A stretch of DNA of 37,790 nt, taken from NCBI GenBank assembly GCA_017459225.1, contig JAFUDL010000137.1:1-37790 (forward strand), read 5' to 3'. Under the pieces are notes generated by a model. That model searched no databases. It was not told where the DNA came from and worked only from the letters and a program-made list of their open reading frames with translations. The translations under genes and the position numbers were made by a program. The number at the start of each line of letters is the position of its first letter. Position 1 is the stretch's first letter. Positions 1-23,792 of this stretch are shown piece by piece. This stretch comes from Kiritimatiellia bacterium. Lineage in GTDB: Bacteria; Verrucomicrobiota; Kiritimatiellia; RFP12; UBA1067.

Positions 1-361
1 CCGCAAGCTCCTTGAAGCACGCCGCGGCAGTCTGCATGTTGGCGGCCACCCTGATCTGCGTGAGCGCGTTCGACCACATGAGCTTCTGGCGCGTGTAGTT
101 TTCGGCGTTGCGCGCCTGCATGCGCGAGAACTGGAAGAACTGGCGCGCCTCGACGTCGCGCCCCACGGCGAGCTTCTGCTTGCCCTGCTGGTAGAACTTC
201 TCCTGCTCGCGCGCCGCCTGGCGCTGGCCTTCGCCGAGCGCGTCGATTGACTTCTCGATGCCGCGCTCGAGGTTGCGCTTCTGCCGGCGTCTTTCCGCCT
301 CAATTTCCTCTGTTGTCTTGAAGATGTTGCCGAGGTTCTTGATAATGCTTCCAAATGACAT
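1..361 (-). CDS. ESCRT-III/Snf7-like (PspA/IM30 superfamily) coiled-coil protein, paralog 2; N-terminus complete, C-terminus beyond the window edge
   Basis: Not in the ORF track because it is open at the window edge. My own minus-strand translation from ATG 361-359 gives MSFGSIIKNLGNIFKTTEEIEAERRRQKRNLERGIEKSIDALGEGQRQAAREQEKFYQQGKQKLAVGRDVEARQFFQFSRMQARNAENYTRQKLMWSNALTQIRVAANMQTAAACFKELA, with no stop down to nt 2. A purine-rich SD-like tract (AAAGAAAGAGAGAG on the minus strand, about 366-379) lies upstream. The N-terminus parallels the neighbouring 228-aa protein. The basic helix 1 and the G(R/K)D..A..(F/L)...R......Y......M......Q..V......Q......(F/M)K layout recalls CHMP/Vps24-type ESCRT-III. 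The family call is by eye only. Confidence 0.55.
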   Translation of the reverse strand, partial: MSFGSIIKNLGNIFKTTEEIEAERRRQKRNLERGIEKSIDALGEGQRQAAREQEKFYQQGKQKLAVGRDVEARQFFQFSRMQARNAENYTRQKLMWSNALTQIRVAANMQTAAACFKELA

Positions 362-415
362 GGGGCTCTCTCTTTCTTTTCAGATAGTTTCCATGAAGGT
401 CCATTCTGACAACGC

Positions 416-1102
416 TCAACCAACTGCAGGCGTTGCGGGGGCGGGTGCCGGCTCGGCAGGAGCTGGCGTTTCGGTGGCCGGTTCAGGAACCGGAGCGGCA
501 GGCGCTTCTGTTTGCGGCGCGCTCGGCGAACTCGCCCTACCGGCGTCGGCCGCTGGAGCAGGAGTGCCAAGCATCGCGGCCCTTCTCGCAGCGCGCGCGG
601 CGTCTTCGCTTCTCGTATCCTTTGCCGCACGCTTCTTCTTGCCCATGTCGTCGAGTTTACCAACCTTCTCAGCCGTCTCGTTGCGCTCCCCGAGCATGTC
701 CTCCACCTGCTCCATGAGAATCTCGACCTCGGCAGGGTCGGCGGCGTGGCGCGCCTGTTCGAGAAGCTGCTCGCACTTGGCGCGTATTGCGCGCTGGGCG
801 GTGATGTTCTCGCCCATCTGCTGCGCGAGAGACCGCTTGCGTTCGAACTCCTTCTCTAGCTCGTCCACCTGGTCCATGAGCAGATCCTGGTTGTTCGGAT
901 TCGTCTCCACCTGGAGCTGGCGCTTGAGCTCGGCGATCTTGTCGCCAATCGCCTTGTTGGCGCGCATGATCGTGTTGCGGTTCTCCTCCATCTCCGCGAT
1001 CTTCTGCTTCACGGAGTCGATCCGCGCGATGAGCTGTCGCTGCCTGGCGGGCTTGACCCCGAAGATGCCTAGGATTTTTTCGATGATGTCACCGAGTGTC
1101 AT
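416..1102 (-). CDS. ESCRT-III/Snf7-like (PspA/IM30 superfamily) coiled-coil protein, paralog 1, with a Pro/Ala-rich C-terminal tail
   Basis: 228-aa ORF. ATG 1102-1100 overlaps the TGA 1101-1099 of the upstream helicase gene (ATGA coupling). N-terminus is MTLGDIIEKILGIFG, followed by long charged heptad-like helices. The segment DPAEVEILMEQVEDMLGERNETAEKV resembles the Snf7 alpha5 pattern D.vD..mD.I.E......EI. A KKKR patch follows, then a tail of about 50 aa (GTPAPAADAG...PAPAPATPAVG). Confidence 0.6.
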   Translation of the reverse strand: MTLGDIIEKILGIFGVKPARQRQLIARIDSVKQKIAEMEENRNTIMRANKAIGDKIAELKRQLQVETNPNNQDLLMDQVDELEKEFERKRSLAQQMGENITAQRAIRAKCEQLLEQARHAADPAEVEILMEQVEDMLGERNETAEKVGKLDDMGKKKRAAKDTRSEDAARAARRAAMLGTPAPAADAGRASSPSAPQTEAPAAPVPEPATETPAPAEPAPAPATPAVG

Positions 1103-4100
1103 GTTGTTTCCTTTCTCTTTGTCGCTTTTTCAAATGCTTCAAGAAGACGCTTCTCCGCACGAGCGCGATCGTATGCCCAATCCTCAACCCAGGCATGAAC
1201 GATGTTCCATCCGAGCGAAGCGAGAACGGAGTCGCGCAGACTGTCGCGGTCGCGCGCGGTGCGCGCGCCGGCGTAGTCGATGCCGTCGCATATCACGCCC
1301 AGCACGTAGCGCGAACCGTCCTCGGGATCGCGCACCGCCACGTCCACTCTGCTGCCGCCGCATCCAACGGCGCGCGCCACCTTTGCGCCGGCATGCTCCA
1401 GAACGGACGCCACCTCCTCCGCGAAGCGGTCCTTCTCGAGATCCCTCTGCGGAAGCGCGATGCGGTATCCCTTCTCCGCGTATTCGAGGAAGGCCCGCAG
1501 GTCGGCCGGACCCTGACGCGAGATGCGGTCTACGTCGATCTGGTGGCCGTGTATACTCGACACCACCACGATCTTCTCCTTCGCGCGCGTGATCGCCACG
1601 TTCAGTCGGCGCTCGCCGCCCTGGTTGCTCAAGGGGCCGAACACCATGTTGAACTTTCCGTTCGCGTCCGGCGCGTATCCAACCGAGAAAACAATCGCGT
1701 CGCGCTCGTCGCCCTGCACGTTCTCGAGGTTCTTCACGAAGAACGGTTCGTTCTCCTGTTCCGCAAAGCGCGGCTCGAGCTCTGGATGCTCGCTGCGCCT
1801 CTCGTCCACAAGGTCCTCAATGAGGTCGCGCTGCGCCTCGCTGAACGTGACGACTCCGATTGACTTCCCGGCGCACTCCGGATCCGCCATCCACTTCATC
1901 ACGAAGTCGGCCACCGTCTCGGCCTCGCGCTTGTTTGTGCGGCTGCCGCTCGCCTCGTACACGCCGTCCGGCACGTACACGAAGCTGACGCCAAGACGGT
2001 CGGTGAGAGACGCCGCGGGGAATATCTGCAGCCCGCCCTCGTAGTAGCGCTGGTTCGAGAACGCGATCAGCGACTCGTGGCGGCTGCGGTAGTGCCAGCC
2101 GAGGAAGCTGGAAGGCACTCCCGCGTGCAGGCATTCGTCCAGAATGCTCTCGAGGTCCTCCACCTCCGCCTCTTCGTCCGCGCCTTTCTGGAAGAAGCTA
2201 GTGGGCGGCATCTGTTTCGGGTCGCCCACAACGATCAGCTGCTTTCCGCGCGCGATCACGCCGATGGCGTCCCACACCGGAATCTGCGAGGCCTCGTCGA
2301 ACACCACGAGATCGAACGCGGCGTCCACGGGCAGATACTGCGCCACTGAGAGCGGACTCATCAGGAAGCATGGCTTGATGGCGGGCGTGAGGGTAGGCGT
2401 TTCGGCGAGGATCTGGCGCACTGGCTTCTGGCGCATCTTCTTGCCGCATTCGTGCATCAGGAGGCCGAGCTCGCTCGTGTCGCCGCGGCGCGCGCGGCCG
2501 TCGTTTCGCGGAATGCGCGCGGAGAGCGTTGCCACGAGGCTCTTCTGCGCGAGGCTGGCGCAACGTTCATCGAGCTCGCGGAAGCGCTCGATCTGGTTTT
2601 CGCGCTTCATCCCCTGGAAGAATCCGAACTCCGGCTCGCCGTCCATGATCTCGTCGAGAAGCTTGAACTGGAACGCCTTGGAGAAACGGTCCGCCAGTGC
2701 GGCTCCGTTCGGCGCGTCGTCGGCATCGATCGCCGCGGCTGCACTCCCTGCGATCGCGGGAATCTTCCTGCGTGCCTCGAAGTACATGAACGCCTGGCGC
2801 AGATTGCCCTTTGCATGCGCCGCTATCTTTCCCGCCTCCTCGGCAAGCGCACCCGCCTTCTCGGGAGCGAGCTCGCCCTTCTCCGCGGCGATGATCTCTC
2901 CCGCTGCGGCACAGGCCTTATCGATGCGCAGCTCGGCCCTCGCACGCGCCTCCATCCAGCCTTCGGGATCTGCCTTCGCCGGCTCGAAGCCCGCGTTCAG
3001 CAGCTCCTTCGCGCGAGGCTCGAGCTTCGCGAGCTCCTCGTCGGCTGCCTGCAGGTTCGCGGCCATCTTCATCGCCTCGCGCAGGCGAACGCGGTCAAGC
3101 GCGCCGTCCTTGGCTATCGATGCGTACGAGCGCACGAGCGCACGCTCCTTGAAGATGCGCGTCAGTATGAACGAGCCGTCTATCTCCGCGACACGCCGGC
3201 GCAGCTCGCGCAGCGGCATCTCCCTGAGAGCCTGAATGTCGTACTCCGTCCCGACGTTCCGCTCGAACGTGCGGGACTCCTTGAGAAAATTGAAATACCT
3301 CTTCAGGAAACGCGCGGCTTCATCTGCCGGACCTCCCACGGCGGCAAGTTCCGCCACAGCCGCGCGAAGCTCCTCGGCGACGTGCGAGGCGTTCTCCGCG
3401 AGGCGGGCTTCAGATCCCGGACTCCACGCGAACGGCTTCACGCGCGCAAGCGCCTTCACCGCGTCTGCGGAAATTCCCTCCCTCATCTCGGCCGCCGCCG
3501 CAATCGCGCGCAGAGCCTGCTCATAGTCGGCGGCAGTCGTCTCTCGCGCGCTTCCCTTCACCGCGAACGATGCATCCTCGCCGATCTCGCCGCGCACTAG
3601 GCGGGAGAAGAGCTCATACGGCGTGAAGCCGCTCACCGTCTCTCTGTGAAGCGCCTTTACGTAGCCGTCGAGCTGGCGGCGCATCGACTCCATCTCGCCC
3701 ACCACCGCGCTTCTGTCGCCGGGCGGCGAGGAAGCGCCTACCTTCAGCGCCTCGGAAAACTGGGCGTACACGTCCCCCTTGCCGGTCTTGTTCGAATGCA
3801 GCTGCAGGCAGAACGGAGCAAGCCCAATGCGCGCAAGGCGGTTGTACACGACGTCGAGCGCGGCCTTCTTCTCGGAGACGAACAGCACGCGCCGTCCGAG
3901 CGAGAGGTTGTGCGCGATGAGGTTTGTGATCGTCTGCGACTTTCCGGTGCCGGGCGGACCATGCAGCACGAACGTCTTGCCCAGCGCCGAGTAGAGGATG
4001 GCCGCGAGCTGCGAAGAGTCCGCGCTCATCGGGCAGCACAGATGCGAATAGTCGAGATGGCGGTCCACCTCCTTCGCCGGGAAGATCTCCACTCCGTCGT

Positions 4101-6018
4101 CGAACGTTCCGGCCCTGTTGATCAGGTGGGCGATGAGAGGATGCGAGCGGATCGCCTCGCTGCGCGAAGTGAGATCCTTCCACATCACGAACTTGCCGAA
4201 GGAGAACTGCCCGAGGATGCACTCCTCCGTCACCGCGAGGCCCGGCAGATCGCGCACGGCCGCGCGGAAGATGCCGAACACCTTCGCCACGTCCACGCCG
4301 GAGTCGTCGGTAGGCAGCGGATCGAGTCCAGGCACCGAAAGCTGGTACTCCACGCGCAGCATCTCGAGGAGCGTGGTGTTGACGATCGTCTCCTCGTCGA
4401 TTCTGTGAATGCGGTATCCCTCCGCCACGCTGCGCCGCTCAATTCTCACCGGCATCAGCAGAATCGGCGCGCGGTATGCCGAGCTCGACTTGGCACCACC
4501 CGCCTCTCGCCATTCAAGCGCGCCGAACGCGAGGAACAGAGTGTTGACGCCGCTCTCCTCAAGGTCCACGCGGGCCGCACGGTATAGCTCTTTCATCCGC
4601 CGTTCGGTCTCGCGCTTCGGCAGCGCGCTCCACAGGTCGCACTCGCGAAGCGACTTCACGAGAGTGTCGCGGTACTGCTCGATCGCCGCGGCGGGCGGAA
4701 GGCGCTGAAAGGCGCGCCCTGCATCTTCGTCCAGGAAGTTCTCGTACGACTTCACGCGGAATCCGCTGTCCGCCGCAAGCGCGTCTTCTAGCTTCGCGGG
4801 CTCGGGGCAGAGAATCGGCACCACCTTCGCGGTGCCGCGCACGTTCAGAAGCCGGTTGGCCTTGGAGAGATCGAGAAGACGCTGCGCCCAGCCGTCCATG
4901 CGCGCCTGGGCGGAGTCCTTCGCGCCGCGGTCATTTCCAAGCTCGTCGAGGTCGATGTCCTCCTTCAGCGCGCGCGTTGCATCGTCGCGTGCGTTGACAT
5001 CGCGCCCATCGACCTCGCCGAATCCTCCGCCCGGCGCGACGGGAAGCGAGCGAACGCCCATGCCGCGCGCGAGCGCCACGTCAACCGCCGAACGGAATGC
5101 GGGCTGGTGCAGCAGATGCTTCTTGGCGGCGCTCTCCGCTTCGGCGAAGGATGAGTTGCCGCCGACAAGCGTGGTCTCGATCACGATGAACGTGTCGTCG
5201 TCCATCGCCTTGCGCAGCGTTTCCACATCCGTCACCACGGGATCGTGGAAGCTCTTGTCCAGCAGATGGCATCCAACGAAGGCGTGGTTCTCTATCAGCA
5301 CCACGACGGGCCTCAGCCCGCACAGTTCGAACATCGAGGCGAAGAGCAACGTGGTGTCGAGGCAGCAGCCGGTCTTGTACTTGAGGATCTCGTCCGGCAG
5401 ACGTACCTTCTGCCCGGGCTGGCCGAACGTCGCGGGCGCCACGGCATAGGAGATTCCGAGGTTCTGCACCGCGCGGTAAACTGCCTTGCAGATGTCGTAC
5501 ACGGCCGCCTTGCCCTGGAGATAGCCCACGATCGCCGCGGAGCCCGTCGTCTCCTCGAGGATCTTCGCGACGTCGGCCTGAATGCGGCGCGTGGCGTCGC
5601 AGCTGGGGATGACGAAACTCGCGTAGTAGATGGGGCGCCCGCAGCCAAGCGTCTGGTCGGGCGGGTAGGCGGTCTGGCGGGCGGACGCGAACGCGAGCTC
5701 GTTGCCGTCGGCGTCCTGCACCGCCGCACGCACCTCGCCCTCCTTCACGTCGGCAAGCTCGGAGAGGAACGCATAGTCCAGCCTGGGCTCGCCTTCCGGA
5801 ATCGGCACGCACACCGTCTCGCCAGGCTGCACCGCGGCGAGCGCCATCTCAAGCGGACGAAACAGGCCGATGTCCGAAGACACCACAAGCCTCGCGCCCA
5901 CGAGAGTCTCCTCGCCGGCGTTCTTCACGCGCACCTCTCGCAGCACGGACTGCCCCGCCTGCTGAAGCACCAATCCGCTCTCCGCGGCCACATCCACTTC
6001 TACCGTCAGATTGTTCAT
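1099..6018 (-). CDS. Giant SF1 helicase-nuclease (Hhe-like: DUF4011-like + Upf1-like helicase + Vsr/DUF559-type endonuclease fold) with an N-terminal transglutaminase-like Cys-protease domain
   Basis: 1639-aa ORF. Domains by eye: aa 1-120 beta-rich. Aa ~130-300 transglutaminase-like core (KTGCCLDTTLLFASMF, ENHAFVGCHL, HDP). Aa ~375-650 DUF4011-like (RLLDLSKANRLLNVRG, NTLFLAFGALEW, APILLMPV). Helicase motifs: GPPGTGKSQT (Walker A, nt about 3937-3966), VVFDEASQI, VVGDPKQMPPTSFF, WHYRSRHESLI, VVTFSEAQ, VQGDERDAIVFSVGY, GERRLNVAITRAKEKIVVV, with a coiled-coil insert of roughly 300 aa between the helicase lobes. C-terminus: GCGGSRVDVAV...YVLGVICDG..Y, a PD-(D/E)xK-like fold. Confidence 0.9.
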   Translation of the reverse strand: MNNLTVEVDVAAESGLVLQQAGQSVLREVRVKNAGEETLVGARLVVSSDIGLFRPLEMALAAVQPGETVCVPIPEGEPRLDYAFLSELADVKEGEVRAAVQDADGNELAFASARQTAYPPDQTLGCGRPIYYASFVIPSCDATRRIQADVAKILEETTGSAAIVGYLQGKAAVYDICKAVYRAVQNLGISYAVAPATFGQPGQKVRLPDEILKYKTGCCLDTTLLFASMFELCGLRPVVVLIENHAFVGCHLLDKSFHDPVVTDVETLRKAMDDDTFIVIETTLVGGNSSFAEAESAAKKHLLHQPAFRSAVDVALARGMGVRSLPVAPGGGFGEVDGRDVNARDDATRALKEDIDLDELGNDRGAKDSAQARMDGWAQRLLDLSKANRLLNVRGTAKVVPILCPEPAKLEDALAADSGFRVKSYENFLDEDAGRAFQRLPPAAAIEQYRDTLVKSLRECDLWSALPKRETERRMKELYRAARVDLEESGVNTLFLAFGALEWREAGGAKSSSAYRAPILLMPVRIERRSVAEGYRIHRIDEETIVNTTLLEMLRVEYQLSVPGLDPLPTDDSGVDVAKVFGIFRAAVRDLPGLAVTEECILGQFSFGKFVMWKDLTSRSEAIRSHPLIAHLINRAGTFDDGVEIFPAKEVDRHLDYSHLCCPMSADSSQLAAILYSALGKTFVLHGPPGTGKSQTITNLIAHNLSLGRRVLFVSEKKAALDVVYNRLARIGLAPFCLQLHSNKTGKGDVYAQFSEALKVGASSPPGDRSAVVGEMESMRRQLDGYVKALHRETVSGFTPYELFSRLVRGEIGEDASFAVKGSARETTAADYEQALRAIAAAAEMREGISADAVKALARVKPFAWSPGSEARLAENASHVAEELRAAVAELAAVGGPADEAARFLKRYFNFLKESRTFERNVGTEYDIQALREMPLRELRRRVAEIDGSFILTRIFKERALVRSYASIAKDGALDRVRLREAMKMAANLQAADEELAKLEPRAKELLNAGFEPAKADPEGWMEARARAELRIDKACAAAGEIIAAEKGELAPEKAGALAEEAGKIAAHAKGNLRQAFMYFEARRKIPAIAGSAAAAIDADDAPNGAALADRFSKAFQFKLLDEIMDGEPEFGFFQGMKRENQIERFRELDERCASLAQKSLVATLSARIPRNDGRARRGDTSELGLLMHECGKKMRQKPVRQILAETPTLTPAIKPCFLMSPLSVAQYLPVDAAFDLVVFDEASQIPVWDAIGVIARGKQLIVVGDPKQMPPTSFFQKGADEEAEVEDLESILDECLHAGVPSSFLGWHYRSRHESLIAFSNQRYYEGGLQIFPAASLTDRLGVSFVYVPDGVYEASGSRTNKREAETVADFVMKWMADPECAGKSIGVVTFSEAQRDLIEDLVDERRSEHPELEPRFAEQENEPFFVKNLENVQGDERDAIVFSVGYAPDANGKFNMVFGPLSNQGGERRLNVAITRAKEKIVVVSSIHGHQIDVDRISRQGPADLRAFLEYAEKGYRIALPQRDLEKDRFAEEVASVLEHAGAKVARAVGCGGSRVDVAVRDPEDGSRYVLGVICDGIDYAGARTARDRDSLRDSVLASLGWNIVHAWVEDWAYDRARAEKRLLEAFEKATKRKETT

Positions 6019-10645: not shown

Positions 10646-13600
10646 CTACTTGATTACGATCCGCGCCATCACGGCGTCGTGGTCGCTCGGATGGACGCCG
10701 TCCGGACGCTCATGGCAAGTGACGTGGCGCAGGACGCGCACGTTGCCCGTGGCGAATACGAAGTCGATAAGGCAGACGTTGCTCGGCCTGTATCCGCTGA
10801 ACGTGTTGACCGGCCCCTCGTGCGGAGTCTCGCTTCTGAGGCGCGTGTCGTAGAGAGTGTGGAGAGCGGCGGATATCGGGTCGGCTATCGTCAGCGGATC
10901 GTCGATGACGGGTCCACCGCCAGCCTCCAGCCGAGCCCTGTCCTCCGCCGGAACATTCTTGTAGTGCGCGTTCATGTCGCCCGTCAGGAAGACTGTCTCG
11001 CCCTGCGAGAGACGACGCATCTCAGCGAGGATCACTCTCATGCCCATCACGCGAGCCTCGTTGCTTATGTGATCGAGATGCGTGTTGTAGTAGCGAAATC
11101 TGCGGCCAGTGCGCTTGTCGCGGAAGAGGCCCCAGGTACAATTGCGCTCGCAGGCGGAGTCCCACGACTTCGAGCCGGGCACGCGGGGCGTCTCGGAGAG
11201 CCAGAACGTGTCCGTGGCGAGGCACTCGAAGCGCGCCTTGCGGTAGTAGATGGACATCGACTCTCCAGCGTCCTCCGGCAGACGCCCGATCCCGACGCGC
11301 CCCCACCCGTCGCCGAGGGCCTCGTCGAGCCACGTCCTCTGGACTGTCGTAAGCTCCTGCATTCCAACGATGTCGAAGGCGCGGTCTCTGATCACCTTCA
11401 GCACGTACGGGAAGCGGTTCGTCCAGAAATGCACGCCCGCGTCGGCCTTGGTGGCACAGCGGACGTTGAACGAAGCGAGGTTGAATGCGTCTTCGCTGTC
11501 GCACTTCTCTGCGATGCCATAGTCGATGTACTGTCCACCGTAGTCCTGATGCGTTGTGGACGCGATCACGTTGTCGCCCTTCTTGAGCGCCTTCGCGGCG
11601 GCGTCAGAGACATTCTGCATCTCGTAGTCGCATGAATATCCGCTGAACGTTCCAGCGAGAACGCCGTTGAACCACACCTTCGTGTCGTCGTCATGGTGCA
11701 ACGAGAGAAGCGGTTCGCCCGGCACGGCGTCTAAAGTCACGTGGCGGCGCAGCCAGATGTTCTTCGTATTCCACTTCGTGCAGACCGCTGCACCGGGCGT
11801 GCCGGACGTACCGAATCCACCCGCGCCCGTCTGCCACCCTGAATCATCGAACTCCGGCTTCTCCCATCCATAGGGCGGATTGGCGAACGTATACTTCCAA
11901 ACGATGTCTGCGGACTTACGCCCCTCCGGCGCGATGACCCTGTATCTCGCCTGCTCTTTGAGCGGCGCATAGAGGCCGGTCTTCGCCTTGTCGCGAGAGG
12001 CGTACTTGCGCCAGATCGCGCCGTCGCGGAGCATGGGCATGAACACGCCGCCGATCACGCTGCGGCCGATGAAGTGAACGTACTTGGAACTGTCGGTCCA
12101 ATACCAGTCGGAGAACGCCACGCGGCTCGGAGTCTCGTTGGCGAAGCGGTAGACGCGGTCGACGATGGCGTCGAAGCACTCGCGGCGGTCGGTGAACGCG
12201 GCGCACCACAGCTCCCAGTCGGTCTTCGTGTAGGGCTTGCGGTTGTCGAGAGGGAGTCCGTACGCATGGGCGAGGCGGCAGTAGGCGTTGGCCTCCGCAT
12301 CAAAGACGGACTCGGGGAAGAGCCCAAGGCCCAGCACCTTGTCCCACACGATGTTGTACTTCATCGACCACGTGCCTGGACGGTCGTAGGCGAGGCGGTA
12401 CGCGCCTTCCGCGCCGCCCTTCGCGGCCTCCATCCACTTCGGCACCATGTCCTTGGCCATCGCCGCGTACTTGGCGGCGACTTCATCGTGGCCGAGCGCC
12501 TTCGCGAGGCGGGCGTAGCAAGCGAGCGCCACAATTGACTTCGCGGCGAGGTTCGCGTTGTGCGCGAGGTGTCCGGCGAAGTCGTCCGTGCAGAGCTGAT
12601 TGCCTGGATCGAAGCCGAACTTCGCGAGATACTCCGCCCACTTCGTGATCGTGGGCCACCAGTACGACGCGAACTCGGCCGTGCCTTCGATCTGCGCGAG
12701 CGCGGCGAGGCAGATGATCATGTTGCCGCTCTCCTCGACCGGCATCAGAAGCGATTCGTCCTTCGACTTCTCGCCGCCGCCGTAGCGCTGCTGGTTGGCG
12801 AGGGGATACTGGCCGAGGTCGTGCGGGGCGAAGGGCCATGGCCAGCGCGGATGCGAGGCGTACACGAGAACGGGCGCGAGCATGGCGCGCATGAGCGTGG
12901 GGCTTGCAAGAAGCATCTGAGGCGACTGCGGATAGAGGATGTCGACGGTGCCGATGCAGCCGTTGGAGTCCTGCTCCTTGGAGAAGTAGAGCGGCTGGTT
13001 GTTGCAGTCCGCCGCAAGCTTGCAGGCGGCGAACGTCTGGCGGTAGGCGAGGCTCGCGAGCTTAGCGTACTTCTCGCCGCCCACCTTCACGAGGTCGGCG
13101 TAGAATTCGGCGTCGAAGGCGTCGAGCCGCTTCATGATCGAGGCGCGTTCGGCCTCGGCCTTCTCGAGCATGGCGGTGAAGGAGAGCCCGTCGCGCCGCC
13201 ACCAGGCAGGAAGGTCTTCGCCGAAGAACTGTATGGCCTTCACGTCATCGTAGGCGAGAAGGAAGTGCGCTTCGCCGGCATTCGCCGCGCTTGGGCCGAC
13301 GAGCCACGCATAGCCCCAGTCGCAGCGGACGTGGTCGCCGCTGTACGAGAGCGGACGCTGCTCGACGCGCCCGATGGACATCGCGGGAAGTCCGGCCACC
13401 GTGCAGCGGTTGGTGACCATCTGCGCCCTGTCGTTGTTCGTCGCGAGGGCGGGGGAGATGGCGGCGTTGAGCTTCCACTTCTTCGCGCCCTCCACGTATG
13501 CGGTCACGTATGTGACGGGACGCGAAAAGACGTCAAGGTCGTCCGTGAGCTTCGCCGTGGAGAAGACGAGCTTCGCCTTGAGCGCGCCTTCGGCGAAGGT

Positions 13601-15809: not shown

Positions 15810-18800
15810 TCAGCCAGCCGGCGCAGACGGCGCGTCGATGCTGTCGAGATACTGGCCGTATCCATCCGTCTTATAGGTCAGCTTATAGTTTATCGGCATG
15901 CCGAGGCTGAAGGACCATATCGTGAGGTAGCGCGTTGAAGCTCCTTCGTCGCCCACGTACCAGATCACCGCCGATTCGCTGAATGCCTTTCCGTTCAAAG
16001 TGCCTGCCAGTTTCGCGACGCCCGTTCCATTAATGGTGATCGTCGCGCTGCCGCCTGCGAACGAGACCGATGCGGTCTTGTGGAGAAGTGTCGCGAGATC
16101 CAGCGCTTCCTGCGCCACGTCAGCCCCCTCGAAGAGTAGTCCCCCATTCGCGTTGTAGCCGAACACGTTCCTGCGCCCTACGATGTCGTGTTGCGCGAGA
16201 AGGACTTCCGTTATGCCGCTGCTTGTCTTCTTCGTGTAGTCTTCGAAGTATCGGCCATCAAGCGAATTCTCGTAGTAGGCCGCGGTTGGATCGAAGTCGA
16301 GGACGAGGGTATGATTGTAGGTCACATTCTTCTTTTTGTCCTTGCTGCTAGATTTCATGTTGGCTCTGAACGTGTTGTTGTACAGGTCGTAGGTGAGTCC
16401 GTTGCAGGAGAAGCTACGGCTGCCCATCTTAGCCGTCACCTTGCCGTCCTTAGCGACGGAGGCCGTCACCTTCAGCGACTTGCTGCCGAACGAGTCGCTG
16501 TATGAGGTGGCCCAGGTGTAGCCGTAGAACGTGCCCAGGACCTTAGCCGGCAAAGTCTTCACCTGGAACGTCGCGGTGGCCACGTACGACGTACTGCCCT
16601 TCGCGACGGTGAACGCGAAGGTGTACGATCCCGTCTTCTTCGTGTATCCCTTCAGCGTCTGGCTCTTCGCGTCCCACGTGATGCCGGTAGGAAGCCCGCC
16701 GATCTTCGTGATCTTCCACCCGCTCGTCACGGATACGCCCAAGTCGGCAAGCCGGTGCTTGACGCCTGCGTACATCACGCCGGGCGACTGCGCGGACGTG
16801 CCGTAGGTCATGGTGAGCGCGCCCGCGTCGACAGCCTGCGTCCTATTCCGGCCCCACACGACGAAACTCTTCGTCGCCTTCTTGCCGGAGCGGTTCTTCG
16901 CCGTCACCTTCACGACATGCCGCCCGGCTGGCACCTTTTCGGGTGCAACGACCTGGAGAGCGTAGAAGTAGATGTTTTCGGAGTTGGAATAGAGACTGAA
17001 CGTGACGCCGGCCGGAAGTTTGCTCGTCGTCACCGTCGGATAGGATTCAGACGTGGCGATGACTAATGTCGCGAGCGCGCTGCTCTCGGCGTAGAGCGTG
17101 GTGTAAGGGAGTGCGCCCAGGGCGATCGCGTCGGCCGACTTCTTGATGAAATGCGCCTTGTAGGAAACGTTCGAAGTCTTCGGCACCGTGATCGTGGGCG
17201 AGGCGCTCTTGCGGTTCTGCGTGTCGTATTTCGGGAAGGCGGCCTTGGACGCCGCGTCCACCGCCTCCCAGCGCTGGAACACGTATCCGTACGCCGGCGT
17301 CGCCTTGAGCTTCACCTTCGTTCCCCATGCATACGTGCCGGATCCCGTCACCTTCTTTACGCCGGGCGCCACGCCCACTGCCTTCACCTTGAATTTCCTC
17401 TTCGACCAACGCGCGTAGAGCTTCGTCGACTTCGCGAACTTCGTCTTCGCCGTCACTTTCGTGCCGCCGGACTTCGCCGTGTACCAGCCTGCGAACGAAT
17501 AATACGTCTTCACAGGCGCGGGAAGCGTGCCCACGGCGACATTCTTCGGAACGGTAAACTTCGCGGGCACGTCCACGCCGGACAACGCGCCGCCGTTCGA
17601 GTCGAGCGTCAGCGTGACAGGCGTGCCCATGCGCCAGGAGAGCGGGTATTCGCCGCGTTCACCGTTCGCTCCGCCAACGCAGATGTAATACTCCACGCCC
17701 GCCTCCGCCTTGAACGACACGCGGCTAGCGCCACTCTTCGCGAAGTCGTTGTTCTTCGCAACCTCGGCATTTGTGTCGGCCCGGTAGACATACAGCAAAG
17801 TATCGAACACGCTGCCGATCGTGTCGAACCACACCGTTCCCGACTTCGGCGCCTCCCACTTGTACCACATCGTTGCGCAGTCGCCATGCTCGGCCATGAT
17901 CGACGCCCATGCCTCGTCCGAATCGACGCCTGCGAGGAAGTTGCCGCCGGACATCTTGCCCGATGCGCCGCCGATGTATCCGTAGGACACAATGGAATCA
18001 TTGAGAAGATTCCAATGCACAAGAATCATCGTCCCCTCAAACACCTTCCTGAAATCGCTCGTCGGCGGGAACGTGTCTTTGAAGGTCACCTTCAAGAGGC
18101 TCGTGCAGTCCTTGAACGCATAGTCGCCGATCGACTTCAGACCGGCCGGAATGGTGGCGCCCTTCAGGAGCGTGCAGCCGTACAGGGCCTTCGGCGCAAT
18201 TGCCTTGACCTTGTACGGTTTGCCCTCCCGGTACACGGTCGCAGGGAGGACGACGGTCCCCTTGTACAGCGCCTTGTCTGCGGCAGAAGGCTCCGCGCCG
18301 GTGCCGATCGTCGCGGTGCCATCGTCCTGCCAGACGAACGTCCACCAGATTCCGGATGCGTCCTTCCATCTCGCTACGCCGCCGTTCTCCACTTCCATTT
18401 CCATGTTGAGCTTAATGGTCCCGTCCACGTTGTCCGCTCCATAGCCCGAGGCGCAGATGCGGTATGTCTGCCCGGCGACGGCATGGAAAGAGAGCCGGCT
18501 CCAGTATTTGTACGAGAGGCTTGTATCGTCGTCGTTCTCAACCACTTTCGTCAGCGCCGACACGGACGTGCCCGTATAGACTCCGAGAACTGTGTCCATA
18601 TTTTCTCCGTTGGGTAGGCATGAGCCGACGGTGTCGAAGGTCGCGGTGCCGTCTATCGGCGCGGTCCATGTCCACCAGACCGTGTTCGTGGCGGCAATTC
18701 TGTACGACTTCAACGGTTCGCCGCTCTCCGACGAGGAATACCTGACCGACGCCGAAACTGTCCCTTCCACGCCAGAAATCTCGCCCGCATGGGCGAAGTC

Positions 18801-21800
18801 GTCGTTCGCTGGACGGGCCATCCACTGCGCGGCGTACGTGACGTTGCCGTATACGACCGTCGTCGGGTACAGCCTGGTCCCCGACTTCCACCAGCCCGAG
18901 AAGGCGTAGCCCGGACGCGACGCCGTCGGCAAGGTGCCGACCGGCTGGCCCATTTCACGCGACAAGACGTAGCTTGGCGAACCTCCGTTGGCGTTCAGCG
19001 ACACAGTGACCTTGGAGAGGTAGCTCCAGTTGACCTTCACCGCGCCGACATTGCTGTTGCCATAGCCCGCCACGCAGATGCGGTACGCGTTCCCCAGCAC
19101 AACGTCGAACGCGTTCGAGCTGATGTAGCAGCCAGATATGGCGTCGTCGTTCTCCGCGATCTTCGTCAGCGCGGATAAGGAGGTTCCCCTGTAGACGCCC
19201 ATCACGGTGTCGTCTATTCCGGACCCGGCGGTGTTGAACTGGACCTTTCCCGTGGCTGGGGCGGTCCATACCCACCACACCGTGTTCGTGGCTGCCGTCT
19301 TGAAGGCCGGCAGCGGATCGCCGGTTTCCCGCGTGGCGTATGCCGTCGTGCCTGATGCGGAGCCGTAGTAGCCTGTGATCTTGGCCGCTTTCGCGAAGTT
19401 GTCGTTAGCCGGTCCTCCAGGGCGCCAATGCGCGTAGAAGTGCTTGTTGGACCTGCTCTGGATCGTGAACGGACTGACCCTCCTGCCGCCGCTTGAGGCG
19501 GTGTACCATCCGTCGAACACATAGCCGCTGCGGACAGGTGTAGGCATGTAGTTGTAAATGACGGCGCCGATGTTCACGGAATTGGTCTTCACCGTCCCCA
19601 TGTCGTTGTTGTAGTGGAAATAGGCGCTTCGATACGTCCTATATGCGCGGCCGCCGTTCACGACTAGCGAATAGCGCGTCGCGTTCTTAGTGCCGCCAGT
19701 GAGAGATGTGTCCATGCCCGTCTTGATGCTGCTGGACGCCGTCCAGACCCGCGCCGTGAAGACGTGGTATGATGTCATGTCGCTTGTGGGGATGCGCACG
19801 CCAAGGGCGGTCGCCCCGGATATGCTGCCGGAGTTCATGGTGTACGTCTTGCCATCGTCGCGCGTCACGCTGAAGTTGAGGGCGTTGACGCGCTTGGTGG
19901 CGGTGGTTGACGCAGACGGATCGCCTGGCGCGTCCGTCCATGCCAGCATGAACGTGACGGGCCGTCCCGCCGGAGCCTCGATAACCCAGTTCGCAGAGGA
20001 GTTGTTGCCGATGACCTGCGCATTCTCCACATACACTCCTGTCACATTGGCGAGCGAATTGCTGAGGTTGAGCTGCCCCCAGCCCTCGGCGTTGTTTGGG
20101 TATGTCGAGGGGATTTCCCTGGTGGCGCCGGTGCCGTACTGCCCGGGCGCTAGGCTCCGCGCGCCCGCGAGGAGGATCGCCTTGACCGTGGCGGCGTCGG
20201 GGCTGGAGATTCCGTACTGCTCTTTCATCCACTGCCTGACGAGCGCCGCTGAGCCGGCGACGATCGGCGCGGCCATGCTCGTGCCCTGCATGTAGCAGTA
20301 GTGGTCGTTGTACAGCCAGTACCCTGTTTCCTTCTGCGCGAGAGACGACTGCATGGAGACGATGCCCGTGCCGGGCGCGACGATGTCCGGCCGAATGCGG
20401 CCGTCGCTCGTCGGCCCGCGGCTGGAAAACGCCGCCAGTCCCTGGTGGACGCCATCCTGCGGCAGGGAGTACGAGTCGCCGTTGATGGGCGTTGCCGAAG
20501 TGAACTTGCTGGCATACGTGTAGTTCGAATAGTGATTGGTCTGGAAGTTCTCGGACGCGCCCACGACGATGCTGTTCTTCGCTGCGGCGTAGCCGTTCAG
20601 CGTGGACGTGTCGACGACGCCGTTCGTTGGCGAGATGTCCACCCCGTTGTTCCCCGCCGAGAATACGATCGTCATGTCCGGATGCTCGAAGATGAAGTTG
20701 TCGACACCCTCGCACTTGGCGGTGTAGTTGTTGACAGGGGAGCCCTTCTCTCCTTGTCCGTAGCTGTTGTTGTGCACGCGCGCGCCCAGATTGTAAGCGG
20801 ACTGGAACATCGTCTCGATGTCGGAGGGGATGGAGATGCCGCTTTTGGCGGTGTTGTTTTGCAACGTGGACTGCATGACAAGGCGCGCTTCGTAGGCGGG
20901 ACCGCGGATGCCGCCGCTCGACCGACGGCCGTTGCCCATCGCGCATCCGACCACATGTGTGCCGTGTCCATTCTGGTCGTGCCACCTGCCGCGCTCCGAG
21001 ACGGAAGCGGAAGAGACGAGCCGATTCCGAATGTCAAGGTGGAGCGTGCCGTTTGTGCCCGTGTCGAGGCCCGTGTCGGCTACGCCGATGATCTGGTTCG
21101 TGCCAGTCAACCCGAGGAGCGTGGCTCCGCCCTCCCACACGGATTCGACGTTGGCGCGTTCCGCCTTCAAGGCCATGTCGAGCGTCAGGACGCTTTTGCG
21201 GAAGCGCTCGATCCAGTGGACGTCAGGCCATGAGGCGACTTCCCTCACTGCGGCGGCGGTGAGGACGGCCCGGACGCCTCGTCCGGTCGCCTCCTCCACA
21301 GTGCATCCGTCGAGCGCTGCGATCTTCTGCGCCACCGCGTCCGCCGTTCCCTTCTCGAAGAGGAGAATGTCGAAACGTGCGGAATCCGCCCCTGCGCCAC
21401 CCGCAGGCGCCGGCGTGGCCGCGAGCAGGCGCACCGGCTGCCCGCCGGCCGTCGGTGCGGCCGGTTCTGGGGGAAGCTCCGAAGCGTCATAGCGGTAGTC
21501 GGGCCTAAATTCGCCTAGATATGCGTGCGGCAGGTTCGCCGCGAGGTCGGCATAGCGTTCGCCCGGGATTTCGACGAGATAGGTGTCGTCGGGTATATAG
21601 GAACGTATCTTCGCGCCCAGCGACTCCAATCTGTCGCGCCATTCGTCGGTAACCTCGCCGTTCACGGGCTGCACAAGATACAGACCGCGCGCTGGTGCGG
21701 GGACGCCGGCGCCGAGGAGCGTCGCACCTCGGGCGGCCTGCGCAGGCGGGTTGATGGTCGTCGATCTCAGGCGGATGGGCGAGGCGTGCGCGGCAACAAA

Positions 21801-21845
21801 AACTGCTGCGGCCACGGCGAAGGTAGTTGCAACGTATTTGTTCAT
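15810..21845 (-). CDS. Giant secreted modular subtilisin-like serine protease (peptidase S8) with PPC-like, Listeria-Bacteroides (B-)repeat, BspA-type LRR and Ig-like modules
   Basis: Start chosen at ATG 21845 (MNKYVATTFAVAAAVFVAAHA signal peptide). The track ORF begins at an upstream TTG. S8 triad contexts: GVADTGLD, HGTHVVGC, GTSMAAPIVAG. Three PPC-like units have the pattern ND(N/D)FA...NTVWW.WTAP..G...F.T.GS..DTV.GVY.G.S.SALTK..ENDD. Four units of GY.F.GW(Y/W)T..SGG are present. There is one LRR segment (LYGCTLLKGATIPAGLKSIGDYAFKDCTSL). Ig-like segments include LPAGVTFS and GGLPTGITWDAKSQTLKG. Confidence 0.9.
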   Translation of the reverse strand: MNKYVATTFAVAAAVFVAAHASPIRLRSTTINPPAQAARGATLLGAGVPAPARGLYLVQPVNGEVTDEWRDRLESLGAKIRSYIPDDTYLVEIPGERYADLAANLPHAYLGEFRPDYRYDASELPPEPAAPTAGGQPVRLLAATPAPAGGAGADSARFDILLFEKGTADAVAQKIAALDGCTVEEATGRGVRAVLTAAAVREVASWPDVHWIERFRKSVLTLDMALKAERANVESVWEGGATLLGLTGTNQIIGVADTGLDTGTNGTLHLDIRNRLVSSASVSERGRWHDQNGHGTHVVGCAMGNGRRSSGGIRGPAYEARLVMQSTLQNNTAKSGISIPSDIETMFQSAYNLGARVHNNSYGQGEKGSPVNNYTAKCEGVDNFIFEHPDMTIVFSAGNNGVDISPTNGVVDTSTLNGYAAAKNSIVVGASENFQTNHYSNYTYASKFTSATPINGDSYSLPQDGVHQGLAAFSSRGPTSDGRIRPDIVAPGTGIVSMQSSLAQKETGYWLYNDHYCYMQGTSMAAPIVAGSAALVRQWMKEQYGISSPDAATVKAILLAGARSLAPGQYGTGATREIPSTYPNNAEGWGQLNLSNSLANVTGVYVENAQVIGNNSSANWVIEAPAGRPVTFMLAWTDAPGDPSASTTATKRVNALNFSVTRDDGKTYTMNSGSISGATALGVRIPTSDMTSYHVFTARVWTASSSIKTGMDTSLTGGTKNATRYSLVVNGGRAYRTYRSAYFHYNNDMGTVKTNSVNIGAVIYNYMPTPVRSGYVFDGWYTASSGGRRVSPFTIQSRSNKHFYAHWRPGGPANDNFAKAAKITGYYGSASGTTAYATRETGDPLPAFKTAATNTVWWVWTAPATGKVQFNTAGSGIDDTVMGVYRGTSLSALTKIAENDDAISGCYISSNAFDVVLGNAYRICVAGYGNSNVGAVKVNWSYLSKVTVSLNANGGSPSYVLSREMGQPVGTLPTASRPGYAFSGWWKSGTRLYPTTVVYGNVTYAAQWMARPANDDFAHAGEISGVEGTVSASVRYSSSESGEPLKSYRIAATNTVWWTWTAPIDGTATFDTVGSCLPNGENMDTVLGVYTGTSVSALTKVVENDDDTSLSYKYWSRLSFHAVAGQTYRICASGYGADNVDGTIKLNMEMEVENGGVARWKDASGIWWTFVWQDDGTATIGTGAEPSAADKALYKGTVVLPATVYREGKPYKVKAIAPKALYGCTLLKGATIPAGLKSIGDYAFKDCTSLLKVTFKDTFPPTSDFRKVFEGTMILVHWNLLNDSIVSYGYIGGASGKMSGGNFLAGVDSDEAWASIMAEHGDCATMWYKWEAPKSGTVWFDTIGSVFDTLLYVYRADTNAEVAKNNDFAKSGASRVSFKAEAGVEYYICVGGANGERGEYPLSWRMGTPVTLTLDSNGGALSGVDVPAKFTVPKNVAVGTLPAPVKTYYSFAGWYTAKSGGTKVTAKTKFAKSTKLYARWSKRKFKVKAVGVAPGVKKVTGSGTYAWGTKVKLKATPAYGYVFQRWEAVDAASKAAFPKYDTQNRKSASPTITVPKTSNVSYKAHFIKKSADAIALGALPYTTLYAESSALATLVIATSESYPTVTTSKLPAGVTFSLYSNSENIYFYALQVVAPEKVPAGRHVVKVTAKNRSGKKATKSFVVWGRNRTQAVDAGALTMTYGTSAQSPGVMYAGVKHRLADLGVSVTSGWKITKIGGLPTGITWDAKSQTLKGYTKKTGSYTFAFTVAKGSTSYVATATFQVKTLPAKVLGTFYGYTWATSYSDSFGSKSLKVTASVAKDGKVTAKMGSRSFSCNGLTYDLYNNTFRANMKSSSKDKKKNVTYNHTLVLDFDPTAAYYENSLDGRYFEDYTKKTSSGITEVLLAQHDIVGRRNVFGYNANGGLLFEGADVAQEALDLATLLHKTASVSFAGGSATITINGTGVAKLAGTLNGKAFSESAVIWYVGDEGASTRYLTIWSFSLGMPINYKLTYKTDGYGQYLDSIDAPSAPAG

Positions 21846-21851
21846 GCCTGA

Positions 21852-21881
21852 ATTGTACCACACGTCCCATTCGAATGTCAA
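21852..21881 (-). promoter_or_regulatory. Sigma-70-type promoter TTGACA-N18-TGgTACAAT immediately upstream of the subtilase ATG
   Basis: On the minus strand, TTGACA is at 21881-21876, followed by an 18-nt spacer and TGgTACAAT at 21860-21852. Only 6 nt (tcaggc) separate the -10 hexamer from ATG 21845. Confidence 0.4.
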
Positions 21882-22346: not shown

Positions 22347-23792
22347 TTAGATCCCAAGCAAGTCCTTGAACCTGATGATCGCGTCAAAGAATCCATCGGC
22401 CTCCACTGACGGTGCCAGTTCGCCCTCGTACACAAGCGCGGTGCGGACAGACACGCTCTTCGGGTGCGGCAGCAGCCGACGCTTCCGCTCGACTTCGTAG
22501 ATGACCTCGCGGCCGATGTTCGCCTTGCGCTTGACCTCGACGACGCAATAGGACATTTTCGTCTGGAGAAGCAGATCAACCTGGACGCCCTCCTTGCCCG
22601 AACTTTCGGACGCCTTCCGAAAATACGGCGCGGCCGACAGGACGAGCGTGCGATCCATGTGCAGCGGCGAAAGAAGCTCTGCGGCATTGTTCACGACGAG
22701 ATTTTCGAACTGAAGCCCCTTGATCGCATCCCAACCTGAAAACTGTTCAATGCCAGCGAACTTGAACAACCCCGTGTCGATGACACGCTTGACCGGCGCA
22801 ACGTACTTCAGGTAAAATCTCGCATAGTTGTCCCTGAGCCTGTATTTCTTTTCCCTGATGTCCGCGCCTGTCTCTGGATTCTTTCCGGCATCGTCCGAAA
22901 CGAATCCCGATTCCGCAAGGCGCGCGAGCGCGGCCGACAACCGTCCTCCTTTCCCCTCTTCCAGCATTTCCGCGATGTCCGTCACGCTGCGCGACCCGTC
23001 GACAAGGCAGTTCAAGACCCTTGCCGTGAAGGCCGGTTGATGCGTGATGACGTCCGTGAACATCTCGTCGAAATCCGTCCGCAGGATGCTGTTGGGCAGA
23101 AAACACATCTGCCTGATGTTCTCATCGGCGGAAAGGGACGGATTGACCTCCTCCAGATAGCGCGGAACGCCGCCTGTCACGGAGAGCACGTCGATTATCT
23201 CCCTGGGATTGACGCGCTCCGCCGCCCGTCCCCAGAACTTGACGCATTCCTTAAGAGGCAGTTCTCCGACCACGAGATCGAGCGAACGGCGTCCCATGTA
23301 GGACGAATTGTCGATGAAGTTCTCTTTGATCCAGGAGGATACGCTCCCGCACAACACCAGAATCAGCCGATCATGGTCCTTCCAATAATTCTCCCACGCG
23401 ATTCTGACCGTGTTTGCGAACATCGGGTCGTAGTAGCCCATCCATGAAATTTCGTCCAGTAGGACAACGGTCTTCTGTCCATTCTTGACCTCGTGGTCAA
23501 GACGAATAAACGCCTCCAGCCAGTTTTGCGGTACCGTCCGCGCGCAACCCGTCTGGGCCGCCAGTTGCTCGACAAATGCGCGAAGCTCGTCTGCATTTGA
23601 GAAGCCCTCTTCGGGATGCACCCCCTCGATCTTCAAGAAGCGAACACCTGTCTTTTTCGCAAATTCCTTGATGAGCGTACTTTTGCCAATGCGACGGCGC
23701 CCCCTGCATGTAACCAAAGAGGATGTTCTCTTGCCCCATAATGAGGCAAGCTGCTCAATCTGATCTTGTCGTCCAACGAACATGAAAGACAC
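22347..23792 (-). CDS. AAA-type ATPase of the Arch_ATPase (PF01637-like) family with a DUF234-like C-terminal region
   Basis: 481-aa ORF. The N-terminus FVGRQDQIEQL...LVTCRGRRRIGKSTLIKEF carries the Walker A motif. VVLLDEISWM is Walker B-like. A winged-helix-like middle region and a C-terminal nuclease-fold-like region (VVEVKRK) follow. Confidence 0.85.
   Translation of the reverse strand: MSFMFVGRQDQIEQLASLWGKRTSSLVTCRGRRRIGKSTLIKEFAKKTGVRFLKIEGVHPEEGFSNADELRAFVEQLAAQTGCARTVPQNWLEAFIRLDHEVKNGQKTVVLLDEISWMGYYDPMFANTVRIAWENYWKDHDRLILVLCGSVSSWIKENFIDNSSYMGRRSLDLVVGELPLKECVKFWGRAAERVNPREIIDVLSVTGGVPRYLEEVNPSLSADENIRQMCFLPNSILRTDFDEMFTDVITHQPAFTARVLNCLVDGSRSVTDIAEMLEEGKGGRLSAALARLAESGFVSDDAGKNPETGADIREKKYRLRDNYARFYLKYVAPVKRVIDTGLFKFAGIEQFSGWDAIKGLQFENLVVNNAAELLSPLHMDRTLVLSAAPYFRKASESSGKEGVQVDLLLQTKMSYCVVEVKRKANIGREVIYEVERKRRLLPHPKSVSVRTALVYEGELAPSVEADGFFDAIIRFKDLLGI

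Follow-up and report, generated by a model that had tools for sequence, protein, structure and literature searches.

A diverged Snf7-type protein and a candidate second ESCRT-III-like subunit encoded beside an AAA ATPase in Kiritimatiellae

Gene layout of the operon

The DNA studied here (the window) is a stretch of 37,790 nucleotides, positions 1 to 37,790 of contig JAFUDL010000137.1 (GenBank assembly GCA_017459225.1) from a Kiritimatiellia bacterium. At its start lie two genes, P1 and P2, which the first-pass annotation had described as tandem paralogous ESCRT-III-like genes. Comparison of sequence profiles and structure models showed that P2 encodes a diverged member of the Snf7 (ESCRT-IIIB / Vps20-32-60) family. 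P1 is probably an ESCRT-III-like second subunit, as its topology, its position in the operon and its sequence motifs suggest.

All peptides quoted in the annotation were found in the translations, and P1 and P2 are both encoded on the minus strand. P1 occupies positions 416-1102 (minus strand) and codes for 228 amino acids (aa). P2 begins at position 361 (minus strand) and runs off the start of the window, which holds 120 of its 206 residues (2-361). Full-length P2 was recovered from a longer contig (L001, positions 10742-11362), found by exact-sequence look-up of P1. The ATG of P1 overlaps the stop codon of the upstream gene, which encodes a 1639-aa helicase (ATGA, 1099-1102).

On contig L001 the order of the operon genes is helicase (1639 aa), P1 (228 aa), P2 (206 aa), AAA ATPase (365 aa), a 297-aa protein, a 284-aa protein, a Ser/Thr kinase (581 aa), a 402-aa protein and a 58-aa open reading frame (ORF). 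Pfam and NCBIfam scans identified the kinase as a Hanks-type Ser/Thr kinase. Four transmembrane (TM) segments were predicted in the 297-aa protein and one each in the 284-aa and 402-aa proteins; none was predicted in P1, P2, the ATPase or the kinase. An eight-gene block is shared by five species-level Kiritimatiellae genomes from ruminant gut, among which P2 and the ATPase are 83-95% and P1 and the kinase 44-92% identical. P1 diverges faster than P2: in the same genome pairs the identities are 44-58% and 83-86%, respectively.

Searches for close homologs yielded about 60 unnamed relatives for each of the two proteins (64 homologs in the case of P1). Copies of P2 in other Kiritimatiellae show 62-76 differences at third codon positions versus 12-22 at positions 1 and 2; for P1 the corresponding numbers are 103 and 52-53. 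Because the copies differ mainly at third codon positions, P1 and P2 must be real genes under purifying selection.

P2, P1 and their relation

The following features of P2 and of the spacer preceding it were located in the window:

2-361, minus strand: N-terminal part of P2, diverged Snf7/ESCRT-IIIB-type (translation, family profile, fold matches)
323-352, minus strand: P2 alpha0, amphipathic, residues 4-13 (AlphaFold2 model; hydrophobic moment; aligns with the yeast Snf7 N-terminus)
47-313, minus strand: P2 alpha1-alpha2 hairpin, residues 17-65 and 69-105 (AlphaFold2 pLDDT, predicted local distance difference test, about 90; aligned to the Snf7 core)
2-37, minus strand: start of P2 alpha3, residue 109 (AlphaFold2 model)
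362-415, minus strand: P1-P2 spacer of 54 nt, with a purine-rich ribosome-binding stretch (AAGAAAGAGAGAG) ahead of the P2 ATG (read from the sequence)

A profile built from the P2 family only (A3) was scored against 1.84e9 representative proteins. Matches at E<=1e-3 numbered 77, including 29 at E<=1e-10, and the best reached 1e-52; nearly all were 205-222 aa long and aligned end to end. When 68 P2 relatives were scanned, 42 matched the Pfam family Snf7 (PF03357) at E<=0.01 (best 5e-11), and several also bear precomputed Snf7 annotations. PspA_IM30 was matched by none of the 68, and no family other than Snf7 recurred. As a guard against profile drift we built a stringent profile (A10) from P2 and only those matches with E<=1e-10. 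Its five best matches in the PDB were all Snf7/ESCRT-IIIB proteins, with yeast Snf7 at 1.7e-7, 1.2e-6 and 6e-5 and Heimdallarchaeota ESCRT-IIIB at 9.4e-5, and no other family in the PDB reached E<0.01. The best alignment to yeast Snf7 begins at the N-terminal helix. A wider profile (A5) matched Snf7 at 4.8e-12. The similarity of P2 to the Snf7 family is thus transitive; in the direct Pfam scan P2 itself was negative, staying below the Snf7 threshold.

Membership of the PspA/Vipp1 family (PF04012) was also considered and dropped: PspA_IM30 was matched by neither P1 nor P2 nor any of the 68 P2 relatives, and a PspA/Vipp1 identity was rejected because the relatives match Snf7 instead.

The AlphaFold2 model of P2, made on a 97%-identical family member (P0065), had a pLDDT of 79. 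It contains the helices alpha0 (residues 4-13), alpha1 (17-65), alpha2 (69-105), alpha3 (109-122), alpha4 (137-165) and alpha5 (167-189). In a Foldseek comparison the ESCRT-III superfamily accounted for 30 of the 40 top PDB fold matches. They were led by closed CdvB (probability 1.0; best E=0.028; TM-score 0.44/0.52) and included Vipp1, CHMP1B, IST1, Asgard ESCRT-IIIB, PspA, CHMP2A/3 and CdvB2.

P1 was modelled with a pLDDT of 76.7, and its helices comprise residues 3-13, 19-65, 69-118, 123-155 and 166-178. Its features in the window are:

416-1102, minus strand: P1, soluble helical protein of 228 aa, probably an ESCRT-III-like partner subunit (ORF, AlphaFold2 model, locus position)
1064-1096, minus strand: P1 alpha0, residues 3-13, LGDIIEKILGIF (AlphaFold2 model; hydrophobic moment; conserved motif)
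749-1048, minus strand: long hairpin of P1, alpha1 (19-65) and alpha2 (69-118) (AlphaFold2, pLDDT 90-96)
638-736, minus strand: P1 helix 123-155, starting with DPAEVEILMEQVEDM (the sole stretch aligning with the Snf7-like family in hhalign)
569-607, minus strand: short basic helix of P1, residues 166-178, EDAARAARRAAML, candidate ATPase-binding element (AlphaFold2 model; conserved residues)
419-568, minus strand: Pro/Ala-rich disordered tail of P1, residues 179-228 (pLDDT below 50; composition)

The amphipathic N-termini ascribed to both proteins in the first-pass annotation were borne out. The hydrophobic moment of alpha0 is 0.61 in P1, a value equalled by 0.5% of shuffled sequences, and 0.65 in P2 (N-terminal 12-mer), equalled by 0.1%. 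In the P1 family alpha0 carries the motif M-x-(I/L)-(N/G)-D-I-(I/L). The succession of basic and then acidic helices, also claimed for both, is clear in P2 (charge +8 across residues 1-106 and -12 across residues 107-190) and weaker in P1. The tail of about 50 residues was likewise found as described: residues 179-228 are modelled as disordered, and residues 181-228 contain 16 Ala and 14 Pro. The tail varies in sequence and ends in a conserved ..(P/T)xV(G/AxG), in which V227 is invariant. In the preceding basic helix and at its end A171, A172, A175 and G179 are invariant among 26 homologs. This helix aligns in position with the C-terminal xLxALL / RLxxL helices of orthologs, and we infer that EDAARAARRAAML may bind the ATPase.

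Structure comparison, proposed earlier as a check of the ESCRT-III assignment, came out differently for the two proteins: the P2 model matched mostly ESCRT-III structures, whereas the matches of P1 were a mixture of BAR, coiled-coil and CdvB2 structures. CdvB2 and PspA were scattered among the P1 matches, and 8 of the top 50 belonged to the ESCRT-III superfamily. The families of the best profile matches divided in the same way, P2 leading to Snf7/ESCRT-IIIB and P1 to coiled coils only. The tandem ESCRT-III-like pair therefore stands for P2, by a two-step profile chain and by fold matches, but no significant link was obtained for P1.

The claim that P1 and P2 are paralogs was not confirmed. BLASTP aligned the two at E=0.48, and hhalign with narrow profiles aligned the first 17 residues only (probability 2.6%). 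With wider families the probability rose to 35-52% (E=1.5e-4 to 4e-4), in local alignments of 32-119 columns. Since ESCRT-III homology of P1 is not demonstrated, "paralogous" is unproven for this pair. The centre of the wider alignment pairs the P1 sequence h-x-DPxEIExLMExVEDM with the family sequence nIDPdxIxxxLdxV, which is the Snf7 alpha3/alpha4 region. The P1 segment DPAEVEILMEQVEDM, previously likened to Snf7 alpha5, is placed in this region by the AlphaFold2 model as well as by the profile alignment. P1 and P2 have the N-terminal motif and the order of the helices in common.

The AAA ATPase and the conserved neighbourhood

Gene neighbourhoods were compared in a pooled set of 57 loci, 37 of them distinct at 90% identity; the counts below refer to loci with enough sequence. 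In 26 of 26 distinct loci the gene directly 3' of the P2 homolog encodes an AAA ATPase, and the two reading frames often overlap by 4 nt. A P1 homolog is found directly upstream of the P2 homolog in 20 of 27, and in one more with a WD40 gene between them (L046, where the intervening gene encodes a 7-blade WD40 protein). P1 orthologs of other lineages matched the P1 profile at E=4e-9 and 1e-8. After the ATPase gene, 13 of 19 distinct loci encode a homolog of the 4-TM protein, which is 33% identical between lineages. The remaining six of the 27 loci have P2 and the ATPase with no P1 homolog upstream, and because they keep both, P2 plus ATPase can be regarded as the minimal core. In five loci another gene occupies the position of P1 (L036 255-1439, L040 3-524, L044 166-1221, L047 1296-2453 and L054 3-1247); by eye, its product has Sel1-like repeats or a Cys-rich, zinc-ribbon-like C-terminus. 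In L041 only a 151-aa low-complexity ORF is present at that position.

The ATPase of the Kiritimatiellae lineage matched PF00004 and AAA_lid_6, and scored 3e-90 with SpoVK, 5e-76 with CbbX and 5e-73 with EccA, in each case below the curated cutoffs. Outside Kiritimatiellae the enzyme is a classical single-domain AAA protein with a YVG pore loop and the second region of homology. This sister-lineage ATPase is nearest to the D2 domain of Cdc48/p97/VAT (E about 1e-97) and has AAA_lid_3; the enzyme of a Planctomycetota metagenome-assembled genome (MAG) also showed a faint Vps4_C match. Walker A, Walker B and a pore-loop aromatic residue are present in the ATPases.

All these ATPases, the SpoVK-like one included, share an N-domain of about 75 aa with three helices; between Kiritimatiellae and other lineages it aligns with an hhalign probability of 93% (E=2.6e-7). 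Of the natural proteins in the PDB, the N-domain profile aligned over its full length with three VPS4B MIT-domain sequences only (E=0.66-1.8). An MIT-like nature of the domain, a hypothesis set before the profile search, is suggested by these matches, which are not significant. A match to an ArsR protein in a single-sequence PDB search was dismissed as chance.

The MIM1 consensus (D/E)xxLxxRLxxL(K/R) has the Vps4 MIT domains as its partner. P2 homologs from other lineages have the C-terminus I-x-x-G-x-x-R-L-x-x-L-L, and P1 homologs from other lineages end in phi-x-x-R-L-x-x-L or L-x-A-L-L after an acidic linker. As judged from their sequences, these terminal helices of the sister-lineage P1 and P2 proteins resemble MIM1. 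The gene neighbourhood is the strongest support for a module of the ESCRT-III type, and the ATPase partner greatly strengthens the ESCRT-III reading of P1 and P2.

The hosts are bacterial: Kiritimatiellae MAGs and one Planctomycetota MAG. Further loci are marked as bacterial by their neighbours, LptF/LptG and an LpxA-like gene in one, XseA, ArgJ and PgpA in others. Many sister loci have a gene for a cytoplasmic papain-like C1 peptidase directly upstream of P1. Caspase-like C14 peptidases, carrying fused Sel1 repeats or a TMEM43-like domain, are encoded after the module in environmental relatives (L032 5014-9557, L035 7210-8910, L046 5833-7938 and 9678-11873). The protease-activated effectors Pepco and EACC1 were considered for these protease neighbours and ruled out, since both are small, beta-rich proteins that form pores (PMC12642450). 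Signalling genes stand beside the core in L014 (5750-6995), L017 (6938-7744) and L056 (12193-16110). The signalling genes by the core encode a PP2C phosphatase and a Ser/Thr kinase with a DO-GTPase2 protein; a sigma-70-like/anti-sigma-like pair beside the core was recognised by weak Pfam matches and has a Cys/His-rich N-terminus. The accessory genes point to varied signalling inputs.

The first-pass annotation had seen in the tandem genes a parallel to eukaryotic and archaeal ESCRT-III. The AAA ATPase encoded next downstream agrees with this parallel, while the missing link for P1, the SpoVK-like ATPase domain and the lack of a canonical MIM do not. As in the archaeal and eukaryotic systems of Snf7-type ESCRT-III with Vps4/CdvC, P2 is profile-linked to yeast Snf7 and Asgard ESCRT-IIIB, has about 200-220 aa and comprises alpha0, the hairpin and alpha3-5. 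Two different subunits in tandem adjoin an AAA unfoldase with a three-helix N-domain, and the relatives in other lineages carry MIM1-like terminal helices. Ser/Thr kinases have been reported in archaeal ESCRT loci (PMC10936438), and the present locus has one too. It differs from those systems in its bacterial host, in the score of P2 below the Pfam Snf7 threshold, in having no ESCRT-I/II, winged-helix or CdvA genes, in the SpoVK-like ATPase and missing canonical MIM of Kiritimatiellae, and in the helicase-nuclease of the operon.

With PspA/Vipp1 (IM30)/LiaH the proteins share an N-terminal amphipathic, putatively membrane-binding helix and, as predicted for P2, the ESCRT-III superfamily fold, and both PspA and Vipp1 appear at the fold level among the matches of the P1 and P2 models. 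PspA/Vipp1 proteins act in membrane stress or repair, sometimes together with an AAA+ protein (PspF) and small membrane proteins. Here, in contrast, P2 relatives match Snf7 and none matches PspA_IM30, two different subunits replace the usual single copy, and the partner is of the classical unfoldase type with a pore loop, unlike the transcription activator PspF. SpoVK/CbbX/EccA proteins resemble the Kiritimatiellae ATPase in their AAA domain, which scores best with them and has AAA_lid_6, but the N-domain here is MIT-like and shared with the Cdc48/Vps4-like sister ATPases, whereas EccA has TPR and CbbX has no such domain.

Popp et al. (2024) described occasional bacterial proteins of the Snf7 clade, and PspA or Snf7 proteins sometimes accompanied by AAA+ ATPases; they also reported Vps4-like ATPases transferred to bacteria, with snf7 displaced by an unrelated TPR/6TM gene (PMC11237479). 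The present system may overlap with or be related to those cases. It differs from them, by their description, in that a diverged Snf7-like gene precedes the ATPase in all 26 loci. In the literature covered, which was incomplete, we came across no account of a core made up of P1, P2, ATPase and 4-TM protein, nor of the helicase, kinase, caspase or papain genes associated with it; an earlier account is possible. A conflict-systems paper from the Aravind group does not mention ESCRT, Vps4 or PspA.

Reviews of 2023-2025 describe bacteria as having PspA/Vipp1 only, usually in one copy and with no Vps4-like ATPase, and Snf7-type plus Vps4 machinery as confined to archaea and eukaryotes (PMC7615534, PMC7619361, PMC10936438). 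If the interpretation given below is right, a Snf7-type protein with a second subunit, an MIT-like AAA unfoldase and a membrane partner in bacteria would revise that picture. It would also provide a compact bacterial system for ESCRT-III mechanics, and would bear on the question of ancient origin versus exchange between PVC bacteria and archaea. The repeated linkage to a defence-type helicase-nuclease, C14/C1-like proteases and kinases suggests a connection between membrane remodelling and immunity or stress signalling.

Proposed mechanism, alternatives and surroundings of the operon

We consider it moderately probable that P1 and P2 polymerise as subunits of a bacterial module that remodels membranes in the manner of ESCRT-III. 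The ESCRT-III reading is supported for P2 and plausible for P1; the functions proposed here are deduced from sequence and gene context. P1 and P2 would attach to the cytoplasmic membrane by their alpha0 helices and form a common polymer, and the 4-TM protein would be a likely membrane receptor or nucleator that places the polymer. By its MIT-like domain the ATPase could dock on the C-terminal elements of P1 and P2 and thread the subunits through its pore, so that the polymer would be remodelled or recycled as by Vps4. The kinase in Kiritimatiellae, or the proteases, the phosphatase and the sigma factor in other lineages, may gate the process. In this way a signal from nucleic acid or from stress (phage infection or envelope damage, for example) would act by phosphorylation on how the polymer assembles or turns over, and the outcome could be repair, or controlled remodelling or disruption of the membrane. 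The module is possibly tied to defence or stress. Because in Kiritimatiellae a helicase-nuclease gene is transcriptionally fused to it, a nucleic-acid trigger or co-effector can be envisaged there, most simply in phage infection; a role in membrane stress is equally possible.

Several observations weigh against this interpretation. In direct scans of Pfam, NCBIfam, PADLOC and PDB sequences P1 and P2 gave nothing significant, their matches (SMC, JetC, LmuB, GCN4) being coiled-coil noise, and because there is no direct library match the link between P2 and Snf7 needs intermediate sequences. Neither model had a Foldseek match at E<=1e-3. For P1, single-sequence and profile searches gave no significant ESCRT-III match. 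Both its narrow profile (A1) and the profile including orthologs from other lineages (A9) matched only coiled coils in the PDB (leucine zippers and those of hemagglutinin in the case of A9). Among the P1 fold matches, a BAR domain and CT398, a chlamydial coiled-coil protein, ranked highest. The ATPase domain of Kiritimatiellae is SpoVK/CbbX/EccA-like and does not fall with the Cdc48/Vps4 clade and its Vps4_C region. The Pfam scan of the N-domain gave no MIT match, Sel1/TPR fragments top its profile matches, and the MIT assignment is below significance. The Kiritimatiellae P2 stops short of the terminal RLxxL helix; in P1 the place of that helix is taken by the basic helix EDAARAARRAAML and the Pro/Ala tail with its terminal Val-Gly. 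Polymerisation, membrane binding and ATPase-driven disassembly of P1 and P2 are predictions, and the link to defence is drawn from the gene neighbourhood.

The reading can be extended tentatively, with a likelihood that we put a little short of even, to the PVC group (Kiritimatiellota, Planctomycetota and relatives) as a whole. These bacteria would possess a heteropolymer of the Snf7 type and an MIT unfoldase acting through MIM-MIT contacts, in the archaeal and eukaryotic manner, wired to immune-like modules (helicase-nuclease, proteases of the caspase-like and papain-like kinds, and kinases). Such wiring would mirror the way in which eukaryotic ESCRT-III counters or executes membrane damage in regulated cell death.

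Other explanations concern the helicase, P1 and the reality of the resemblance. The helicase gene occupies the following part of the window:

1099-6018, minus strand: DUF4011 superfamily 1 helicase with MTES_1575 nuclease-like C-terminal domain, 1639 aa (Pfam, NCBIfam, PADLOC)

Its Pfam domains are DUF4011, AAA_11, AAA_12 and MTES_1575. Against the NCBIfam anti-phage model ProA (NF058533) it scored 1571.2 bits, above the cutoff of 1500, and in PADLOC it matched PDC-S37 with 1068 bits, its C-terminal half matching Hhe. Literature searches on the origin of the name ProA and on PDC-S37 gave nothing useful. In the Kiritimatiellae lineage the helicase is always the upstream partner of P1, and the 4-nt overlap is kept down to about 40% P1 identity. 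In locus L050 (1-10004) an FGE-sulfatase-like gene and a gene for a second, larger DUF4011 helicase (2283 aa) lie ahead of helicase, P1 and P2; all these genes point the same way, and their stops and starts overlap. In the metagenome contig L002 (5089-10004) gene calling split the helicase into ORFs of 1315 and 293 aa separated by 86 nt, which reflects either disruption of this copy or faulty assembly; P1 of this locus is 100% identical to the reference and the downstream genes are 91-99.7% identical. Helicase residues ~173-242 (window 5300-5500) gave a weak match (E=0.1) to the transglutaminase-like, papain-fold DUF553, with the motif KTGCCLD...NHAFVGCH. Since sister lineages have a C1 peptidase upstream of P1, a papain-fold domain beside P1 may be a common feature.

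That the operon is chiefly an anti-phage system built on the ProA/Hhe-type helicase-nuclease is possible, but we regard it as doubtful on the whole. The P1-P2-ATPase-membrane module would then be the effector or safeguard, and under control of the kinase would bring about abortive infection, by killing the infected cell or making it permeable, or would repair the damage. The scores with ProA, PDC-S37 and Hhe argue for this possibility, as do the conserved helicase-P1 junction, the second DUF4011 helicase in L050 and the partners in sister loci (C14/C1 peptidases, Sel1/TPR-sensor and WD40 proteins, kinases and PP2C phosphatase), which are typical of conflict systems. However, P1, P2, the ATPase and the kinase matched no curated defence model, and outside the operon the window holds ordinary metabolic genes and no defence island. 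ProA-type helicases are catalogued as stand-alone, single-gene candidates (PDC-S), whereas by the gene overlap the present one appears translationally coupled to an ESCRT-III-like operon. Some sister loci have an extracytoplasmic function sigma/anti-sigma pair or a DO-GTPase instead, which suggests envelope stress.

We think it unlikely that only P2 is an ESCRT-III protein and that P1 is an unrelated coiled-coil adaptor or regulator, comparable to CdvA, PspB/C or a scaffold. Instead of co-polymerising, such a P1 would recruit or cap the P2 polymer or link it to the helicase. This would agree with the generic coiled coils found by the P1 profiles, with the BAR domain and CT398 at the head of its fold matches, with the short stretches aligned to P2 at 2.6-52% probability, with the 6 of 27 loci that have P2 and the ATPase with no P1 upstream, and with the much faster evolution of P1 than of P2. 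P1 nevertheless has the helix order and helix lengths of P2 and an alpha0 with the same motif, and CdvB2 and PspA appear among its fold matches. Its orthologs carry a terminal RLxxL helix of the kind seen in P2 orthologs, and the stretch that aligns locally is a hallmark of Snf7 alpha3/alpha4.

It is very improbable, and for P2 already disfavoured, that both proteins are ordinary lineage-specific coiled coils whose resemblance to ESCRT-III arose from helical composition and profile drift: the direct library searches were negative, the Foldseek E-values all exceeded 0.01 and long helical hairpins draw spurious matches, but the first-step profile matches were full-length, of the same size and as good as 1e-52 in 1.84e9 proteins, P2 relatives matched Pfam Snf7 independently, the five top PDB matches of A10 were all Snf7/ESCRT-IIIB, and an invariable AAA partner and conserved terminal helices would be unexpected for random coiled coils.

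A reading of the whole window as a defence island was rejected, as outside the operon it encodes rpoN, peptidases, glycoside hydrolases and a subtilase. The subtilase gene (15810-21881, minus strand) codes for 2023 aa with a Peptidase_S8 domain, Listeria-Bacteroides repeats and BspA-type leucine-rich repeats; the product is probably a surface protease and is unrelated to the operon. Positions 22347-23792 (minus strand) encode a 481-aa protein matching ATPase_2 / AAA_16 ("ATPase domain predominantly from Archaea"), which stands apart from its metabolic neighbours and could be a STAND-like or ORC-like NTPase. Two ORFs, of 1128 aa (27222-30608, minus strand) and 379 aa (33411-34550, minus strand), had no Pfam match at E<=1e-4. 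On contig L001, past the operon, a 7-nt unit (CACGAAC and variants) is repeated in tandem about 25 times at positions 17969-18144. Within 17400-18160 two 101-nt direct repeats, 97% identical and 374 nt apart, lie downstream of the 58-aa ORF. Because a 28-residue piece of this ORF recurs elsewhere in L011-L013, it may belong to a small repeated element.

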